A stretch of 64,000 bases of DNA from Candidatus Latescibacterota bacterium (GCA_963791045.1 CAWBQK010000017.1:256001-320000), one strand, 5' to 3'; numbered from the stretch's first letter, positions 24,167 through 52,527 are shown. The notes: generated by a model not told the origin, from the letters alone. A program made the numbers and translations.

Positions 24167-24242
24167 GCGGGCATAACTCAGCTGGTAGAGTGTCAGCTTC
24201 CCAAGCTGAGAGTCGCGGGTTCGAATCCCGTTGCCCGCTCCA
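24167..24242 (+). tRNA. tRNA-Gly(CCC)
   Basis: GCGGGCA acceptor stem, TCAGC-TTCCCAA-GCTGA anticodon arm, GGTTCGAATCC, CCA end. Confidence 0.97.
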
Positions 24243-28516: not shown

Positions 28517-28594
28517 CGGGGCGTGGCGCAGTCCGGTTAGCGCACTAGTCTGGGGGACTAGTGGTCGCTGGTTCAAATCCAGTCGCCCCGACCA
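28517..28594 (+). tRNA. tRNA-Pro(GGG)
   Basis: CGGGGCG stem, CTAGT-CTGGGGG-ACTAG arm, GGTTCAAATCC, ACCA end. Confidence 0.97.
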
Positions 28595-32344: not shown

Positions 32345-32422
<78 letters not shown>

Positions 32423-33912: not shown

Positions 33913-34060
33913 GTGCCCCCGTGCCCTTCGCGAGAATTTGACAGCTCAGGGTCGGTGGCTTTATTATAGCCTTTCATTGAGGTGCCCCCGTACCCTTCGC
34001 GGAAATTTGACAGCGCAGGGTCGGTGGCTCTATTATAGCCCTTCATTAAGGTGCCCCCGT
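33913..34060 (+). repeat. Tandem 69-bp direct repeat (2 copies plus start of a third), each with a promoter and the tRNA 5' end
   Basis: GTGCCCCCGT starts at 33913, 33982, 34051; units ~90% identical; each has TTGACA-18-TATTAT. Confidence 0.9.
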
Positions 34061-34129
34061 AGCTCAGGTGGATAGAGCACCGGTTTCCTAAACCGGGTGT
34101 CGGACGTTCGAGTCGTCTCGGGGGCACCA
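34053..34129 (+). tRNA. tRNA-Arg(CCT)
   Basis: GCCCCCG stem, CCGGT-TTCCTAA-ACCGG arm, GTTCGAGTC, ACCA end. Confidence 0.96.
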
Positions 34130-45371: not shown

Positions 45372-47504
45372 ATGTGGTCTATTACGCAAGAAACCATACG
45401 AATTCTGAATGAGTCCGCGGGCTATCTCCTTTTTGGATTTCTCCTTGCCGGACTGCTCAACGTTCTCCTCAACCGGTACCGCCGTATCACCGGCATCCTG
45501 TCGGCGCCCGGTCAGAAGCCTGTATTCCTCGCCGCTATTCTTGGCGCTCCGCTCCCACTGTGTTCATGCAGTGTTCTTCCAACCGCGCTTACGCTCAGAA
45601 AGCAAGGCGCGAGCAAAGGGGCCACCGCGTCCTTTCTCATTTCCGTGCCGGAAACCGACATCATTTCGATCGTCCTCACCTATGCGTTGTTAGGCCCCGT
45701 CCTTGCTATCGCGAGGCCTGTGTCCGCGGTGATTACGGCGATTGTCACCGGGATAGTCATCAACGCGGTGGAGGCACGGTCAAAAGACATCTCGTCTGCG
45801 CCCTCGACTAACAAAAAGGGCGGGAGCGACGGTCAGAAAGAGAACGGGCTCGAACCCAAAAAGAGTGCGGCGCCGAAATCTGCTGATTCGCCGCCCGGCG
45901 GACACTGGCTGGTCAGAGCGCTTCGCTTCGGGTTTGTCGAGATGTTCGACGACATCATGGGCCAACTTTTTATTGGTATCATTATCGCCGGCGCAATTGT
46001 TGCCTGGTTCCCGTCCCTCAACGTTCAGGAGATGGTCGGTTCCTCGTTCCTCACGTACTTCGTGATGCTGGGAGTAGGCATTCCGGTTTACGTCTGCGCG
46101 ACGGCGTCAACACCGGTGGCCGTGGGGTTGATCGCCGGTGGCGTGAGCCCTGGGGCGGCACTCGTCTTTTTGCTCGCGGGTCCCGCGACAAACATCGCAA
46201 GCCTCGTGGTCCTCAACCGCCAGTTTGGCAAAAAGATCCTGGCGGCATACCTGGTTTCCATTGGAATCGTGAGCCTCGCTTTCGGAATTGCTCTCGATTG
46301 GTTGATCGGACCCGATTACTCCGTCAGGCACCTCGTCATGGATCCTCTTGCCGAGGCCGGTGCTGGTAAAGTCCAGATCGCCGGAACGATTCTCCTCCTC
46401 TTTCTTGTCGGGCTCAGTTTTCGCAGAACCGGAATATTGAAAACGTGGGTGATCTCGGCTTCAAAAAGATTCAGGATCTCGGTGCCCCCGCGGACGGTAG
46501 TGATATCGCTCCTGGCCGTACTGGCGCTCGGTTATCTCTGTAGCGGATTGTTCGTGGTGGATCCTGGAGAAAGAGCGGCGGTGAAGCGATTCGGAAGGAT
46601 AACCAACGGATATCTCCAGCCGGGGCTACACTATCGATGGCCGTTCCCGTTTGGAGTCGCGGATGTCGAATCGGTCACGCTTCTGCGCAGAGTCGAGATT
46701 GGCTTCAGGTCGGATCAGGGCGACTTCATGGCGCTGTCCGCGGAGGATGAGGGCCCGTTCGTTTCGGAGGCGTGGATGCTCGCGGGCGACGAAAACATCG
46801 TCGATGCGCGTTGCGCCGTCCAGTACCAGATCATAGATACTGAAGAAGCCTTTGGGAACTTTGTATACGGTGTCAAGGACAAGACGGCCCTGGTTAGAAA
46901 CGCCGCGGAGTGGGCGCTGAGAAAATCCGTTTCGACCAGGGGAATCGACTCGCTTCTCACCGTCGATCGCGGCGAAGTAGAACACGAAATTAAAACCATC
47001 TTTCTGCAGAGCCGTCTCGATGCGTGCGCCTCGGGCGTGCGGGTTGTGGATGTGAATCTCGAGTCGGTTCACGCACCGGCCCCGGTACACTGGGCCTTCA
47101 GGGATGTAGCCAGCGCCGTGGAAGACCAACGACAGAAGGAAAATATTGCGCGGGAATACTGGGAGCGAACGACGCTTGGCGCCGAGGGGGAAGCGTCGGG
47201 TGTCCTGTCGCAGGCGGACGGCGAGGCGATCGAGCGGGTGCAGAGGGCGATGGGGGACGGTTACGCGTTCGATGCCCTGCGGAAGGTTTACACTCAAGCG
47301 CCCGAAGTCACGGAAATTCGTCTCTATCTCGAGTGGATGGACAGGTTCCTCCCCGGGATGAACAAATACGTGGATCTCATGCCGAGCGGCCGCGGCGGTC
47401 GCGATGTTTGGCTTCGCATGGGACGGGATTCAAAAAAGGGAGCCGAAGGAATGATTAAGGAATTCGAGCTCCCCTGGTCAAGCGATCGGGAGGATACGCA
47501 GTGA
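45372..47504 (+). CDS. DUF318/SO_0444-type metal permease fused to an HflK-like SPFH domain
   Basis: PLPLCSCSVLP, FLISVPET, YVCATASTP, FLLAGPATN; then PGLHYRWPFP, MLAGDENIV, V..AFRDVASA, RLYLE. Confidence 0.85.
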   Translation: MWSITQETIRILNESAGYLLFGFLLAGLLNVLLNRYRRITGILSAPGQKPVFLAAILGAPLPLCSCSVLPTALTLRKQGASKGATASFLISVPETDIISIVLTYALLGPVLAIARPVSAVITAIVTGIVINAVEARSKDISSAPSTNKKGGSDGQKENGLEPKKSAAPKSADSPPGGHWLVRALRFGFVEMFDDIMGQLFIGIIIAGAIVAWFPSLNVQEMVGSSFLTYFVMLGVGIPVYVCATASTPVAVGLIAGGVSPGAALVFLLAGPATNIASLVVLNRQFGKKILAAYLVSIGIVSLAFGIALDWLIGPDYSVRHLVMDPLAEAGAGKVQIAGTILLLFLVGLSFRRTGILKTWVISASKRFRISVPPRTVVISLLAVLALGYLCSGLFVVDPGERAAVKRFGRITNGYLQPGLHYRWPFPFGVADVESVTLLRRVEIGFRSDQGDFMALSAEDEGPFVSEAWMLAGDENIVDARCAVQYQIIDTEEAFGNFVYGVKDKTALVRNAAEWALRKSVSTRGIDSLLTVDRGEVEHEIKTIFLQSRLDACASGVRVVDVNLESVHAPAPVHWAFRDVASAVEDQRQKENIAREYWERTTLGAEGEASGVLSQADGEAIERVQRAMGDGYAFDALRKVYTQAPEVTEIRLYLEWMDRFLPGMNKYVDLMPSGRGGRDVWLRMGRDSKKGAEGMIKEFELPWSSDREDTQ

Positions 47505-48391
47505 AAACAATCGGAAGCGCGGTTTTATTTGTGGTCCTGATGGTTCTCATCGGAACCGCGCTATTTTTTGTCGATGAGACCGAATATGCCATCGTCCTTC
47601 GGTTCGGGCAGCCGACCCAGACGATCACATCAGCCGGGCTAAAAGCCAAATGGCCATGGCCCATCGAGAATGTTGTTCGGTTTGACCGTCGTCTTATGGT
47701 GTTCGATGTTCCCGCCGTGGACGAACCACCTCGCGAATTTCTTACGCTCGATAAGAAGAACATCGAGGTGTCGAGTTATACCTGCTGGCGGATCGATGAC
47801 CCCCTCCATTTTCTGCAAACGGTAGGGGACCGCGAAGGCGCGGAGGCCTACATACGCGACATTGTTGTTTCCGAAAAAGGAAAGCTGCTCGGCAGAAACA
47901 ATCTTAGCGCGCTGGTCTCCGTGGTGCCGGAGCAAATTCGACTGGACTCGATAGCCGCGGAGATTCGAAACACCTGTAACGACGTCGCGATGAGAGAATG
48001 TGGGGTTCGCGTCATCGATTTTCGAATGAAGCGGATCAATTACCCCGAGCAAAACCGCAATAGTGTTTTCGAGCGGATGAGAGCCGAGCGCAAACAGATC
48101 GCGACGCGTTACAGAAGTGAGGGCGAGAAAGAGGCAAGCCGCATCCGCGCGGAAGCCGACCGGCGCCGAATGGAGATTCTCGCCACGGCGACACGAACGG
48201 CCCTCGAAACCAAGGGAAACGGGGAAGCGGAAGCGGCACGGATATACAACGAGGCGTACGGGAAGAACCGGGAGTTTTACCAGTTTTTGCGCACGCTGGA
48301 ATCGTATGAAACCTCGATGGACGAGGGCACGACGATTTTGCTTCCATCGTCTATGAAGTACCTGAGAACACTTCTCGATCCGGTTCGGTGA
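47501..48391 (+). CDS. hflC: HflC-like SPFH protein
   Basis: LTLDKKNI, FERMRAER.QIA..YRSEG, EFYQFLRTLESY. Confidence 0.88.
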   Translation: MKTIGSAVLFVVLMVLIGTALFFVDETEYAIVLRFGQPTQTITSAGLKAKWPWPIENVVRFDRRLMVFDVPAVDEPPREFLTLDKKNIEVSSYTCWRIDDPLHFLQTVGDREGAEAYIRDIVVSEKGKLLGRNNLSALVSVVPEQIRLDSIAAEIRNTCNDVAMRECGVRVIDFRMKRINYPEQNRNSVFERMRAERKQIATRYRSEGEKEASRIRAEADRRRMEILATATRTALETKGNGEAEAARIYNEAYGKNREFYQFLRTLESYETSMDEGTTILLPSSMKYLRTLLDPVR

Positions 48392-48422
48392 CAGACCGTC
48401 GCATGAGTGGGATTGTGTTTTC

Positions 48423-49358
48423 ATGCCGGACAGAAACATGAACGATACAAAATACGAGAATATACAACGAGGGTTGGCGGGTCGCCGGAAGTATGGCTGG
48501 ATTGCGCTATCTGTGGTCCTTGTGTGGTTGGCGACCGGGTTTTATACCGTGGATTCGAATCAACGCGGCGTCATCACGCGTTTTGGCAAGGTTCGGGGTA
48601 GAACGCCCCCCGGAATTCACTATGCGCTTCCACGACCCATCGATCGTGTGTTTACCCCGGCAACGACTGAGGTCCGCAGGATCGAAGTGGGGTTTCGCTT
48701 GAAAGGAGAGTTGTGGGCGGAGAAACGCCGTTCGGATATGCTCACCGGGGACCAGAATATCCTCAAGGTTATGATGGTTGTGCAGTATAAAATACGCGAG
48801 CCGGAGAAATATCTCTTCGATGTTTCGGAGCCGGATTGGCTTGTCGAGCGCGCGATCGAGTCGGCGATGTCCGCGTACATATCTCGTGTGTCCGTGGATG
48901 ACGTTCTTACCACCGCCAAGGCCGAGATCGAGATACGCACCGTCGAAGGCGCCCAAGCATTGCTCGATCACTATGGTGTTGGCGTGTCGCTCCTGACGGG
49001 CAACCTCCAGGTGGTTTCGCCGCCAGTGCCGGTCATCGAGGCGTTCAACGATGTGGCGCGCGCGAAGAAAGACAGCGAACGCACGATTGAAGACGCTCGT
49101 GTATATTCGAACGAGATCATTCCAAGATCCGAAGGGGAAGCGGAAGGCATCACGAATGCTGCCGGCGGTGCTTACGAGATGCGTGTCAAACAGGCGCATG
49201 GACACGCAAAACGATTCAACGATCTTCTCGTGGAATACAACCGTGATCGTAGTCTCACCAAACAACGATTGTACCTGGAAACAGTGGAGAGGGTTCTGTT
49301 AAAAACAAAAGTGGTAATCGTTGATGACAGTTCGACCGTCACCATCATCGAAGATTAA
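48423..49358 (+). CDS. hflK: HflK-like SPFH protein
   Basis: GVITRFG, PGIHY, MLTGDQNI, PP.PV.EAFNDV.RA, RLYLETVE. Confidence 0.88.
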   Translation: MPDRNMNDTKYENIQRGLAGRRKYGWIALSVVLVWLATGFYTVDSNQRGVITRFGKVRGRTPPGIHYALPRPIDRVFTPATTEVRRIEVGFRLKGELWAEKRRSDMLTGDQNILKVMMVVQYKIREPEKYLFDVSEPDWLVERAIESAMSAYISRVSVDDVLTTAKAEIEIRTVEGAQALLDHYGVGVSLLTGNLQVVSPPVPVIEAFNDVARAKKDSERTIEDARVYSNEIIPRSEGEAEGITNAAGGAYEMRVKQAHGHAKRFNDLLVEYNRDRSLTKQRLYLETVERVLLKTKVVIVDDSSTVTIIED

Positions 49359-49434
49359 TCCCGCCGTCACGCCCCATCAGATGCGCGTACCTCGTCCAGC
49401 CCTTTCCAATGTATACTATCGCTGATTCGAGGAT

Positions 49435-49569
49435 AAAAAAAACGAGAGTACTAGCCCGATGCCAACCGTGTCGCTTAACGCCCATCAGAGGCCCATGCGG
49501 CAACCGCTTCGCTAAAGCATTATAGCTTGAGAGCAGAGGGCTCACGCGAAGGTTCGGGATACTCTCGTT
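49435..49569 (-). ncRNA. Candidate structured small RNA (~135 nt, 6S-like rod)
   Basis: Perfect promoter immediately upstream; 10-bp closing stem AACGAGAGUA/UACUCUCGUU; internal stems; U-run at the 3' end. Confidence 0.65.
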
Positions 49570-49575
49570 AGTAAT

Positions 49576-49605
49576 ATTATACTCGGGCATCGTTTCGACT
49601 GTCAA
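49576..49605 (-). promoter_or_regulatory. Consensus sigma70 promoter
   Basis: TTGACA(49605-49600)-18 nt-TATAAT(49581-49576) on the - strand. Confidence 0.8.
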
Positions 49606-50034
49606 CCCCCCGGCCTAAATTTTTGGAATCCATAACCTGTTAATTCACAGTCCGTTGCACAGCCCATTTAACCTTTTTTCGACATCAAGGGGTTGCTGTA
49701 ACACGCTGATATACAACGCGTTGTGGTGGTGTACGAACTTGCGTTTTTATAATGGGTTGAAAGGGGGGCTTGATGTGAAATCCAACCAAGATACGGGGGG
49801 AGCATCTTGAGAGGGGTGAAAACGGTGTTCCCGGTTGCTAGCAATCTATGGCCGACCAATCGGGAACACCGAAGAAAATCACCTTCTCAGCCACCACAGT
49901 AGGTCGATGAGGTAAATCCTCTGCATGTTGCACCCCCTTGTAAGGGTAGGTTGACTTACCTGCTACCGGGCGATATTTTGGATTGCTCAATATGTCGCAC
50001 AGCAAAAAGCGTTCCGTGTGCGGTGTGGCGGGAG

Positions 50035-52527
50035 TTAAGCGTTTTTATATCTGACAATTACATTTGTTATGTCATCGTGTTGCTTGCCGTCCCCAAAGGC
50101 CAGAATCGTTGCAAATAGCGAATCCTGCAACCGTCCGAGCGGCAAGTTCCGGTTCGCTTTGAGAAATCGGATCAGACGGTCCTCGCCATACTCCTCGTCG
50201 GTGGGGCTGGCCTGCTCCGTGACTCCATCGGTGTAAAGAAAGAGAATGTCGCCGGGGTCGAGACGAACTCTTCCTTCTGTATAGACGTGGTTGCTATCAA
50301 TGCCGAGAATCAGTCCGCCTTCGCCCAGCCTGTCGGCGAACTCCGTCTTCAAAAGGATCGCGGGGCAGTGACCTGCATTGCAAAAAGAAAAGGTCGAGTC
50401 GATCATATCGATGATGCCGTAAAAGAACGTGGTGAACAACTCGCTCTTTGCGTTTGCACACAGATGCTTATTGAGTTCGCCGACGACATCACTGGGATTC
50501 ATCCGATCGCGCACGGCTAGGTTCTTGAACACTGCCTGGAGCGATGACATCAGCATTGCTGCGGGAACGCCTTTGCCACTGACGTCCCCGATGGCGACGC
50601 CGATACGGTTCGCGTCGAGCGCGAAATAATCAAAGTAGTCACCGCCAACCTCGACGGAGCTGACCATTTTGCCGGCGAGATCCAATTGGGAGTGATGGGG
50701 CGGTTTCTTGGGGAGAAGATCGAGTTGGATTTCTCTCGCGAGCATAACCTCGTTTTTGAGGCGTTCCTGTTGGATCGAAGCCTCGTGAAGATCGGCATTC
50801 TCCAGCACCAGCCCAAGATGTTCCGACAAAGTTTCGAGGAGCTCGGAGTCAGTTTGAGTGTAGAGCAGACCGGAACGTTTTTTTCCAAGTATGATGAGTC
50901 CAAAGAGAGCGTCCGCCGAACCCACGGGAAGACACACGGCGGCTTGTGTCGAGGCGAGAAACCCCAACGAGGGGCCATCCAGATATCTTCTTTCCCACGT
51001 GTTGTCCAGGTATTCGACCATGAGCGGCTTTCGGTAACGGCTCAGGTACCTGCCGAGAAGCGATCCTGTGGGAAACGTTTCAGGAAATTTCGCCCCGTTT
51101 GAATTGTCGGTATCGAGAGCGAGACGCCCGTCTTCCTGGTCGTACCGATAGAAAACAAAATAGGACGCCTTGAGAAGGGAGCCTATACGGTTGGAAAAGT
51201 GATCGAGGATCTCGGACGATTTGATTTTGTGTGAGATCTCCCTGTTGAATTCCACAACTTCCTGACGGTAATCGTATTCACCACGGAAAAACAAACGATC
51301 GACAACGCCCTGGACGATCTGGCGCGCGGGGGCAAAAATAACGGCAAGAACAAGGACCGTAATAACGGAGAAGTAAGTCGGGTCGAGCTTGAATTCGGTC
51401 GTAAAGTAGTCGCCAAGAAAACGAACGACACCGTAATACGCGGCTATAATGACACCGGTGAGAAACGCGTACACAATGCTCTTTCTCACCACAATGTTGA
51501 GTTCGATTGCGCCATGCTTGAGGATTGCGTACGCAAACGACACCGACACGAACGCGAGACCCAGCGAGCAAACAAATTCCCATGTCGTGTATGTCCCCGG
51601 CATGATCTGACGCCACACGATCATGGAAAGGAAGGGAAGCATCCCGACTATGGTTCCACCGATTGCAATACGAAGTTTTTGCCGCTGCGCCACCGTAGAC
51701 GATCGGTAATTGCGGACAAATACAACCATGGAAGCCACGAGGTACGCCGTAATGTAGAGAGTCGATATCGACAGAATAAGGGTGAGAACAACGGTCGGAG
51801 TGTGGTCAAAATAAAAATTGCGTATCGCGAAAACACAACTTATCAAATAGATGAGGGTCGGTATTGTGTAGATCAGCAGAGCACGGCGGATAAGCTCGCG
51901 TTTGCCGGGCGGGCGGAGCCGATCGGGAAAAACGAGAAAAAAGTGAAGAAAGACCGCGGGAAAAAATATCATTGCCGCGTCGTCGAATAGCTCACCGGCG
52001 ATCTGCAGAAACGATATGTCGAATACGGGCCTGTCTCCGAGAAGATAACAAATGATAATCGAAGTGAGGGCGAAGGTGATGCCGATGGTATCCGTCCGGC
52101 GGAGCAATACGAGAAGACCGGTCAAAAGAAATGTAAACCCAACGAGAACCAGTCCGAAGCGGCGGTGAACGATCGATGAGGGGATAGTAACGTATTCGAC
52201 CTCGACGGTGAATTCTTCGCCGTTCCTTTCCAGGACATATTCGGTCGGCTCGAAGGAGCCGTTTTTTCTGACGACAGATCTGAGGTGTTTGTAGTTACGG
52301 ACGGGCACGCCGGCGACGGAGATGATTTCGTCATTGAGTTCGATGGGTTTTTCTGCGTTTGGGCCCTTTGAATTGATGTTCTGAACTGTGAGATTCAGCG
52401 TCTCGATCCCCGAATATGGGGTATTTATAAGGTCGCGCGACCCGGGAAACTGGAGAAAAACCGTCAGGAGCACCAGGAGCAGGACAGGGAATCGGAGGTA
52501 CCGGTGGTGGAGCGGTGCTTGACGCAT
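50035..52527 (-). CDS. Membrane PP2C/SpoIIE (RsbU-like) phosphatase with PDZ and GAF domains
   Basis: VGGDYFD, GDVSGKGVPAA, CNAGH, YTDGVTE, DDIT; multiple TM helices; PDZ-like NDEIISVAG. Confidence 0.9.
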   Translation of the reverse strand: MRQAPLHHRYLRFPVLLLVLLTVFLQFPGSRDLINTPYSGIETLNLTVQNINSKGPNAEKPIELNDEIISVAGVPVRNYKHLRSVVRKNGSFEPTEYVLERNGEEFTVEVEYVTIPSSIVHRRFGLVLVGFTFLLTGLLVLLRRTDTIGITFALTSIIICYLLGDRPVFDISFLQIAGELFDDAAMIFFPAVFLHFFLVFPDRLRPPGKRELIRRALLIYTIPTLIYLISCVFAIRNFYFDHTPTVVLTLILSISTLYITAYLVASMVVFVRNYRSSTVAQRQKLRIAIGGTIVGMLPFLSMIVWRQIMPGTYTTWEFVCSLGLAFVSVSFAYAILKHGAIELNIVVRKSIVYAFLTGVIIAAYYGVVRFLGDYFTTEFKLDPTYFSVITVLVLAVIFAPARQIVQGVVDRLFFRGEYDYRQEVVEFNREISHKIKSSEILDHFSNRIGSLLKASYFVFYRYDQEDGRLALDTDNSNGAKFPETFPTGSLLGRYLSRYRKPLMVEYLDNTWERRYLDGPSLGFLASTQAAVCLPVGSADALFGLIILGKKRSGLLYTQTDSELLETLSEHLGLVLENADLHEASIQQERLKNEVMLAREIQLDLLPKKPPHHSQLDLAGKMVSSVEVGGDYFDYFALDANRIGVAIGDVSGKGVPAAMLMSSLQAVFKNLAVRDRMNPSDVVGELNKHLCANAKSELFTTFFYGIIDMIDSTFSFCNAGHCPAILLKTEFADRLGEGGLILGIDSNHVYTEGRVRLDPGDILFLYTDGVTEQASPTDEEYGEDRLIRFLKANRNLPLGRLQDSLFATILAFGDGKQHDDITNVIVRYKNA

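Follow-up and report, generated by a model that had tools for sequence, protein, structure and literature searches.

The window analysed here is the whole 64,000-nt stretch of DNA, and the features of the locus described below are collected in Table 1. On the minus strand, behind a gene encoding a PDZ-GAF-SpoIIE phosphatase of the PP2C type, lies the gene of a small RNA with a promoter of its own; the spacer between the two holds a second conserved unit with a promoter-like element, a mini-ORF and a terminator-like hairpin, and an SPFH/Band-7 gene runs towards the RNA from the other side. Because this downstream gene is convergent, no same-strand gene follows the RNA. Three consecutive SPFH/Band-7 genes occupy positions 45372-49358 of the plus strand, the first of which is fused to an ArsP-type permease domain, and four tRNA genes of the same strand are found within 10 kb of one another (24167-24239, 28517-28591, 32345-32419 and 34053-34126).

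Table 1 Features of the small RNA locus and its surroundings (positions counted from the first letter of the window)
Feature	Position	Strand	Details
PDZ-GAF-SpoIIE (PP2C) phosphatase gene, next upstream same-strand gene	50035..52527	-	Pfam SpoIIE, E = 9.9e-51
Second conserved unit, in the spacer between phosphatase gene and RNA	49823..50015	-	sigma54-like promoter 50015-50002
Strong Shine-Dalgarno and 15-codon mini-ORF MQRIYLIDLLWWLRR	49926-49879	-	
Hairpin with conserved stem, then UUUU, terminator-like	49871-49823	-	fold z = -3.68
-35 hexamer TTGACA, the RNA's own promoter	49600..49605	-	invariant in 30/30 aligned f1/f2 homologues
-10 hexamer TATAAT	49576..49581	-	18-nt spacer to -35
Small RNA, ~128-135 nt, A49569 (+1) to U tract	49435..49569	-	homologue matches and metatranscriptome contigs
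Rod, 5′ arm	49540..49569	-	P1 49569-49560, P2 49558-49554, P3 49551-49548, P4 49546-49543, P5 49541-49540
Apical domain	49478..49536	-	P6 (49536-49531 with 49483-49478) closes the three-way junction
Apical hairpins			P7 49526-49511; P8 49507-49497
Junction strand J8/6 (AUGGGCCUCUGAU), 13 nt	49484..49496	-	predicted single-stranded; near-invariant GCCU
Rod, 3′ arm	49441..49474	-	P5 49474-49473, P4 49470-49467, P3 49466-49463, P2 49459-49455, P1 49450-49441
U8 tract, intrinsic-terminator tail directly 3′ of the P1 3′ strand	49435..49442	-	
Convergent SPFH/Band-7 gene downstream of the RNA	48423..49358	+	Pfam Band_7, E = 1.1e-21

The initial annotation had proposed a perfect sigma70 promoter on the minus strand with a predicted +1 at 49569, exactly the first base of a 10-bp terminal stem that runs into a U tract, and all of these elements are present in the sequence at the positions listed, with six bases between TATAAT and A49569. 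The exact arrangement TTGACA-N16-18-TATAAT has its sole instance in the 64-kb window here, and 0/100 dinucleotide shuffles give any; the 3.66-Mb assembly contains five, the RNA promoter among them, and the reversed control contains none. In an alignment of 30 sequences, the commonest base has a share of 1.00 over the -35 hexamer, 0.49 over the spacer, 0.93 over the -10 hexamer and 0.78 over the RNA body, from +1 exactly to the U tract, with 0.35 upstream of -35, 0.35 between -10 and +1, and 0.40 downstream of the RNA. Conservation is confined to the hexamers and to the interval from +1 to the U tract, indicating that selection acts on the promoter hexamers and the transcript. BLAST and covariance-model matches in relatives likewise start at +1 and end at the U tract, and TTGAC is found in the expected promoter window of 67/67 genome copies and 36/36 unique metagenome copies. 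Two families depart from this layout: f6 has a TGCTAa-type -10 in place of TATAAT, and the RNA of f5 lacks a U tract of its own and has a separate terminator hairpin in common with a convergent tRNA gene. The shared terminator of the f5 loci (L149-L166, L177, L191) is bidirectional and consists of an A-run, a stem and a U-run.

The 171-nt stretch comprising promoter and RNA is present as a single copy in the genome to which the window belongs (all other matches have E>3), and searches with two covariance models, R1 and R2, never returned more than one match in a positive genome. It had also been suggested that the element holds no credible ORF. An 86-codon ORF at 49345-49605 does overlap it and has no Pfam match; stop codons interrupt 36 of 54 homologues in the frame set by the first base of the RNA match, and indels of one and two bases separate the RNA copies of close relatives. 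The RNA locus is not a protein gene.

The distribution of the RNA was followed by sequence and by covariance models. A DNA search of 41 related genomes gave strong single matches in 11/12 genomes of the window's own family (f1) and in 20/23 of the sister family (f2), and a single chance-level match in the other five families represented. Model R1, built from f1 and f2 sequences and run on 151 genomes, produced full-length matches in f1 (11/12), f2 (20/23), f6 (10/12) and f5 (14/35) and none in f3 (0/43), f4 (0/7), f7 (0/10), f8 (0/7) or f9 (0/1). With R2, built from 50 sequences of f1, f2, f5 and f6, the positives were f1 8/9, f2 15/17, f6 10/10, f5 26/33 and f3 1/60, and none were obtained in f4 (0/5), f7 (0/9), f8 (0/6) or f9 (0/1). 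The copy in the window scores 135 bits (R1) and 122.9 bits (R2), a match that is built in because this copy belongs to the training set; members on which R1 was not trained score 28-79 bits and share promoter and gene order with the family. Four weak matches (E 3.6e-5 to 5e-3) lie on the reverse strand, which is due to the near-symmetry of the rod, and the loci concerned (L022, L023, L027, L030) were for this reason left out of the R2 and 67-sequence alignments. At E<=1, no match was obtained in ten outgroup genomes from other phyla, chosen via their phosphatase loci.

Divergent forms of the RNA were observed beyond these four families. The single f3 match of R2 retains promoter, rod, P4 and P6 and carries a different insert in place of P7/P8; by BLAST this form occurs in 5/61 f3 genomes, at another genomic place than the mini-ORF. 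In f8, one genome (G048, locus L275) contains a divergent RNA missed by R2, with a TTGACA/TATAAT promoter, the rod, P4 and GCGAAGCG and with no GCCUCUG, so that the absences in f3, f4, f7 and f8 hold for these models only. At another f8 locus (L276, G068) the mini-ORF hairpin is followed directly by a tRNA with no RNA between them, as if it had been deleted. A pattern scan of metagenome contigs yielded 61 stretches, 43 of which are true members (R2, E<=1e-6; 36 unique), and the remaining 18, by eye unrelated coding sequence, were dropped. The core search pattern also matches a conserved coding stretch in unrelated metagenome contigs (L203, L204, L212, L213, L216, L226, L237), showing that the core motif alone is not specific. 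Altogether, more than 100 distinct copies with the same boundaries were collected, and the homologue search that the initial annotation had recommended placed the RNA in four families. The RNA is a one-copy gene that is vertically conserved in four families of the Krumholzibacteriia.

The first ten bases of the RNA (49569-49560) can pair with 49450-49441 and are followed, after the 3′ strand, by U8. Folding of the single sequence gives a minimum free energy of -51.3 kcal/mol (z = -2.61), and 4/200 shuffles fold equally well; the single-sequence fold energy is only modest evidence by itself, and the comparative evidence is the strong part. RNAalifold, applied to the MAFFT alignment, returned no more than P1, P4 and small hairpins, and its covariation term was close to 0; the structure was therefore built by hand and then tested. 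Numbered from the first base of the RNA, its helices are P1 1-10/120-129, P2 12-16/111-115, P3 19-22/104-107, P4 24-27/100-103, P5 29-30/96-97, P6 34-39/87-92, P7 44-59 and P8 63-73, and the pairs kept among homologues are CCCGA/UCGGG (P2), CUUC/GUUG (P3), the almost invariant CGUG/CACG (P4), GC/GC (P5) and CUGCUC/GGGCGU (P6). All of the inner pairings originally listed exist as strings in the sequence. CCCGA/UCGGG stands as P2, whereas the registers AACC/GGUU, UCGC/GCGA and GCCC/GGGC are not kept in homologues.

In the unfitted MAFFT alignment A1 (29 f1/f2 sequences), 34 pairs are 92.0% paired versus 32-53% with slid partners, 9 of the 34 have changes on both sides, and the covariation score is reached by 0/500 shuffles. 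For 67 R2-aligned sequences, 39 pairs are 86.0% paired versus 68.6% in shuffles (0/500 reach the value) and 32-52% with slid partners, and 30/39 pairs, those of P6 included, have changes on both sides; this alignment is fitted to R2, which inflates the pairing in P1-P5, P7 and P8. P1-P5 are 87-91% paired in this model-fitted alignment of 67 sequences, with changes on both sides in 23/25 pairs. P6 is absent from the covariance model, and 5/6 of its pairs still have changes on both sides among the 67 sequences; in divergent members both P6 strands are replaced by wholly different, complementary sequences. Most of P8 does not vary (GC/CG), although 28 sequences show G-C to G-U, and P7 is poorly kept in f6. 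Paired changes on both sides, which the initial annotation had asked to be looked for, are present in the alignments, and the comparison supports a predicted bulged rod (P1-P5) that ends in a three-way junction (P6-P8) at its apex.

Among 64 members of the four families, 26 of 135 positions are at least 95% identical, and ten of these 26 are unpaired in the model, namely A42, A62, the UUGC loop of P8 and the GCCU of J8/6 (G78, C79, C80 and U81). Within the apical junction, the predicted P7 has a rival in an alternative P7′ (G44-C79, C45-G78, U46-G77), which is 94% paired, with CG, UG and UA at its third pair. Of two further candidates, P6-B (GCUC with the first GGGC) was rejected, being 75.8% paired, below shuffles, with 0 changes on both sides, and a P9 hairpin (GCCU/GGGC) shows no covariation, equals shuffles and is unsupported. 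Neither of these two alternative pairings of the J8/6 strand has changes on both sides, and by eye no hammerhead core, 11-nt GNRA receptor or kink-turn/loop-E fits consistently across families. Taken together, the own promoter, the P1-P5 rod, the invariant P4 (CGUG/CACG), the P6-closed junction and the junction motifs GCGAAGCG, UUGC and GCCUCUG define the new family.

The position of the RNA in the genome is fixed on its upstream side. The nearest upstream same-strand ORF encodes a SpoIIE-domain protein in 25/26 loci from four families and ends 315-540 nt before the RNA in these 25 loci; the one exception (L155, 1/26 loci) is probably an artefact of ORF choice. These assignments come from flanking ORFs run against Pfam (51/76). 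The neighbouring phosphatases are 47-69% identical within the order and ~30% beyond it, and the RNA core of ~35 near-invariant bases exceeds the adjacent protein genes in conservation. On the downstream side the neighbouring gene varies from genome to genome and is encoded on the opposite strand in 18/26 loci; most f5 loci have a convergent tRNA there, and 5/7 f6 loci and one f5 locus have a convergent gene of the sigma-70 family. The sigma-70-family proteins (L143, L148, L150, L158 and L165 in f6, L154 in f5) have ~270-330 aa with regions 1.2, 2 and 4, and the order at these loci is phosphatase, mini-ORF, RNA and facing sigma factor.

In homologous loci the mini-ORF has 15-17 codons and ends in (I/L)DL(L/F)WWLR. 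Its peptide motif lies upstream of the RNA in 49/52 genome copies and in 30/31 metagenome copies with at least 450 nt of upstream sequence, and D(L/I)(L/F)WWL(R/K) occurs about once per genome in 163/201 genomes of the class. The mini-ORF is more widespread than the RNA (f3 77/84, f7 8/10, f8 6/8) and stands without it in 8/8 f3 and f7 loci examined and in one f8 genome. Its product resembles a small membrane-type protein that has escaped annotation, and its tandem Trp codons, with the terminator behind them, also recall an attenuator leader. A role of the RNA as type I antitoxin of the mini-ORF was rejected, since duplex energies at 9 loci are no better than with shuffled RNA (z -1.5 to +0.9) in a crude test with 15 mononucleotide shuffles per locus.

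Of the sampled words of positions 49250-49800, 8-12% were present in four metatranscriptome runs, which belong to three studies. All eight assembled contig pieces (8/8) map inside 49435-49570, and the flanks have none; one contig of 88 nt, with a depth of 18, is 100% identical over 49465-49552, and another stops at 49557 and continues directly with adapter sequence. Contig X2 (record 6), which comes from a relative, extends past +1 into the TATACT box of the promoter region, and DNA in the library or read-through may thus explain it. As these are assembled contigs, not reads, they give a hint of expression, and the 5′ and 3′ ends are predicted ones.

A comparison of region 49300-50100 with Rfam 15 (4227 models) gave no match to the element at E<=10, in agreement with the earlier suggestion of a possibly new class, and only a chance match to mir-194 (E = 1.9) upstream of the RNA. 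Over the whole window, the gathering score of Rfam was reached by tRNAs. At E<=1, 12 divergent loci matched solely the convergent tRNAs and, below threshold, Plastid-ycf2 in three cases, all three sitting on tRNA genes. An architecture like that of 6S RNA, possibly miniaturised, had been put forward at first, together with a check against the 6S and SRP models of Rfam, and both models do find their RNAs elsewhere in this genome. RF00013 (6S) has no match at E<=10 in 49300-50100, and a canonical 6S RNA is encoded on contig C6:15203-15379 (58.1 bits, above the cut-off) as well as in 4/5 near-complete relatives carrying the new RNA; RF00169 (small SRP RNA) has no match in the element, and the canonical small SRP RNA lies on contig C7:60059-60159 (74.7 bits). 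With canonical 6S and SRP RNAs encoded elsewhere in the genome, the idea of a miniaturised 6S RNA is not supported. The new RNA resembles 6S RNA as a stand-alone gene with a strong sigma70-type promoter, paired ends and a long bulged rod, and is likely abundant and stable, but it has ~130 nt instead of ~180 nt and an apical three-way junction instead of the central bubble. Within P1-P5 the comparative structure shows nothing but small internal loops, and a large two-sided central bubble is absent; what had been taken for such a bubble is the three-way junction, and the UAUAAU (49524-49519) said to lie in it is the variable, non-conserved loop of the P7 hairpin, so nothing mimics an open promoter. 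With 4.5S/SRP RNA it has in common the small, hairpin-like, housekeeping-type form with paired ends, but RF00169 does not match here and the genome's canonical copy is at another site.

Bacterial Y RNAs such as YrlA, which act with Ro (Rsr), are of similar size and combine a terminal stem formed by both ends with a structured upper module. In contrast to these, no tRNA-like T-arm is seen here by eye, no Rfam Y-RNA matches the element or the 12 divergent loci, and the Ro/TROVE protein (PF05731) was found neither in the own genome (0/1, 81% complete) nor in relatives (0/5, 91-96% complete), with the controls matched. Hfq (PF17209) likewise gave 0/1 and 0/5, with matches in the control genomes, and an Hfq-dependent sRNA was discarded on these 6/6 genomes. 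According to the Rfam, TROVE and Hfq results, the RNA is not a 6S, SRP or Y RNA, and an Hfq-type sRNA is unlikely. Known ribozyme and riboswitch families are without Rfam match in the element and the 12 divergent loci, and a regulated same-strand gene downstream, as expected of a riboswitch or leader, is not kept, the next gene being on the opposite strand in 18/26 loci. Further parallels are orphan structured ncRNA motifs known from comparative genomics, for instance raiA, Acido-Lenti-1 and Chlorobi-1. The new RNA is lineage-restricted, stand-alone, structured and supported by covariation as they are, but it has no sequence or structure similarity to any of the 4227 Rfam 15 models, is confined to the Krumholzibacteriia and has an unusually fixed place behind the PP2C phosphatase gene and the mini-ORF. 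It is a new family within a known kind, the lineage-restricted stand-alone structured small RNAs.

The boundaries of the gene, its single copy, its vertical conservation, its covarying fold and its lack of coding potential are established by these comparisons, and we regard a real functional ncRNA of a new family as very probable. The stand-alone ncRNA anticipated in the initial annotation is borne out by the single copy, the conservation from +1 to the terminator together with the promoter hexamers, and the covarying structure. In the explanation that we favour, an independent sRNA gene of a new family encodes a stable protein-binding RNA. Transcription would start at about 49569 from the consensus sigma70 promoter and end at about 49435-49442, at the P1 3′ strand and U8, the 5′ and 3′ ends pairing as P1; the transcript would fold into the bulged rod P1-P5 with the apical junction of P6, P7 and P8, in which the joining strands and the loop of P8 hardly vary among four families. 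The RNA may then serve as an abundant scaffold, decoy or cofactor, with the invariant junction (A42, A62, the UUGC loop and GCCU) as putative binding surface and the end-paired rod shielding it from nucleases. Paired termini are also found in other stable RNP RNAs, and the paired ends, the junction bases that are invariant and unpaired across families with proteins diverged to 30-50% identity, and the missing Hfq (6/6 genomes) fit a protein-binding RNA best. A stress-signalling or transcription factor would be the first candidate for the partner, because the RNA lies behind the GAF-PP2C gene and, in f6, opposite a sigma-70-family gene. Several points weigh against the explanation: the gene order may be plain inheritance, the mini-ORF of f3 and f7 stands without the RNA, the f3 form of the RNA has another genomic site, and the C/U-rich single strand would suit a base-pairing seed as well. 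Granted a functional RNA, the protein-binding mode itself has slightly less than an even chance in our estimate, and for the whole explanation, mechanism included, we arrive at a probability of roughly 0.45.

The main rival is a trans-acting base-pairing sRNA in which the C/U-rich strand of J8/6 (GGCCUCUGA) would act as seed against purine-rich ribosome-binding sites and block translation. The predicted unpaired state and near-invariance of J8/6 are consistent with it, as are the own promoter, the terminator with U tail and the solitary position of the gene with varying downstream neighbours. Its 5′ end would however be locked in P1, and ~35 core bases outside the putative seed are equally conserved, while conservation far beyond the seed is unusual for seed-type sRNAs; with no Hfq in 6/6 genomes and a complementarity to the mini-ORF mRNA no better than in shuffles (9 loci), we consider base pairing unlikely.

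More doubtful is a narrower version of protein binding, in which the RNA would be a subunit or regulator of a stress-signalling module and bind the GAF-PP2C (RsbU/SpoIIE-type) phosphatase, partner-switching proteins or an alternative sigma factor. If true, it would constitute a new RNA input into sigma-factor partner switching, specific to the Krumholzibacteriota, and a functional parallel to the structurally unrelated 6S RNA.

Covarying helices around a three-way junction whose unpaired bases are invariant could also form the pocket or active site of a ligand-binding or catalytic RNA, either an orphan riboswitch-like aptamer or a ribozyme, and with the U tract directly after P1, stabilisation of P1 could in principle control termination. 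There is, however, no gene to control, as the next gene is variable and in most loci on the other strand, no known ribozyme or riboswitch family matches, and the junction is by eye unlike a hammerhead core, which makes such a function improbable. Distinctly improbable, too, is a second, miniaturised 6S-type RNA that would sequester the RNA polymerase holoenzyme, perhaps with an alternative sigma factor. The rod with paired ends and the strong promoter would suit it, and so would the sigma-70-family genes opposite the RNA in f6 and f5 and the upstream phosphatase, as PP2C phosphatases of this type serve in sigma-factor partner switching; against it stand the canonical 6S RNAs beside the unmatched RF00013 model, the variable UAUAAU, the small internal loops and a length ~50 nt below that of typical 6S RNA.

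The proximity to the mini-ORF (49/52 genome and 30/31 metagenome copies) and to the phosphatase gene (25/26 loci) could also reflect a cis-acting part of the upstream unit, such as an element that stabilises the transcript of the sigma54-driven mini-ORF or of the phosphatase gene, or a 3′ product processed from it. This is very improbable, as the -35/-10 hexamers of the RNA are the best-conserved bases of the locus, a terminator-like hairpin lies between mini-ORF and RNA, and loci with the mini-ORF alone exist in f3, f7 and one f8 genome. A functionless chance hairpin or mobile repeat, to which the single-sequence fold z of only -2.61 would point, has a negligible probability given the compensatory changes and the more than 100 distinct copies with the same boundaries, and the MITE with many copies that the initial annotation had weighed, like any dispersed repeat, is ruled out by the single copy and the gene order kept across four families.

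Full-text searches, as far as the accessible text of the literature extends, found no report on ncRNAs of Krumholzibacteri* or Latescibacteria, and the Krumholzibacteriota are an uncultured phylum. The RNA described here has one of the five strongest-looking promoters of its genome and occurs as a single copy in the majority of genomes from at least four families. The promoter, the single copy and the conserved core are the marks of a housekeeping-grade RNA, not of a lineage-private regulator. Its constant location downstream of a PP2C phosphatase gene and a conserved mini-ORF provides a concrete and testable hypothesis. With more than 100 sequences, clear boundaries and support from covariation, the family could be submitted to Rfam and would improve the annotation of MAGs.
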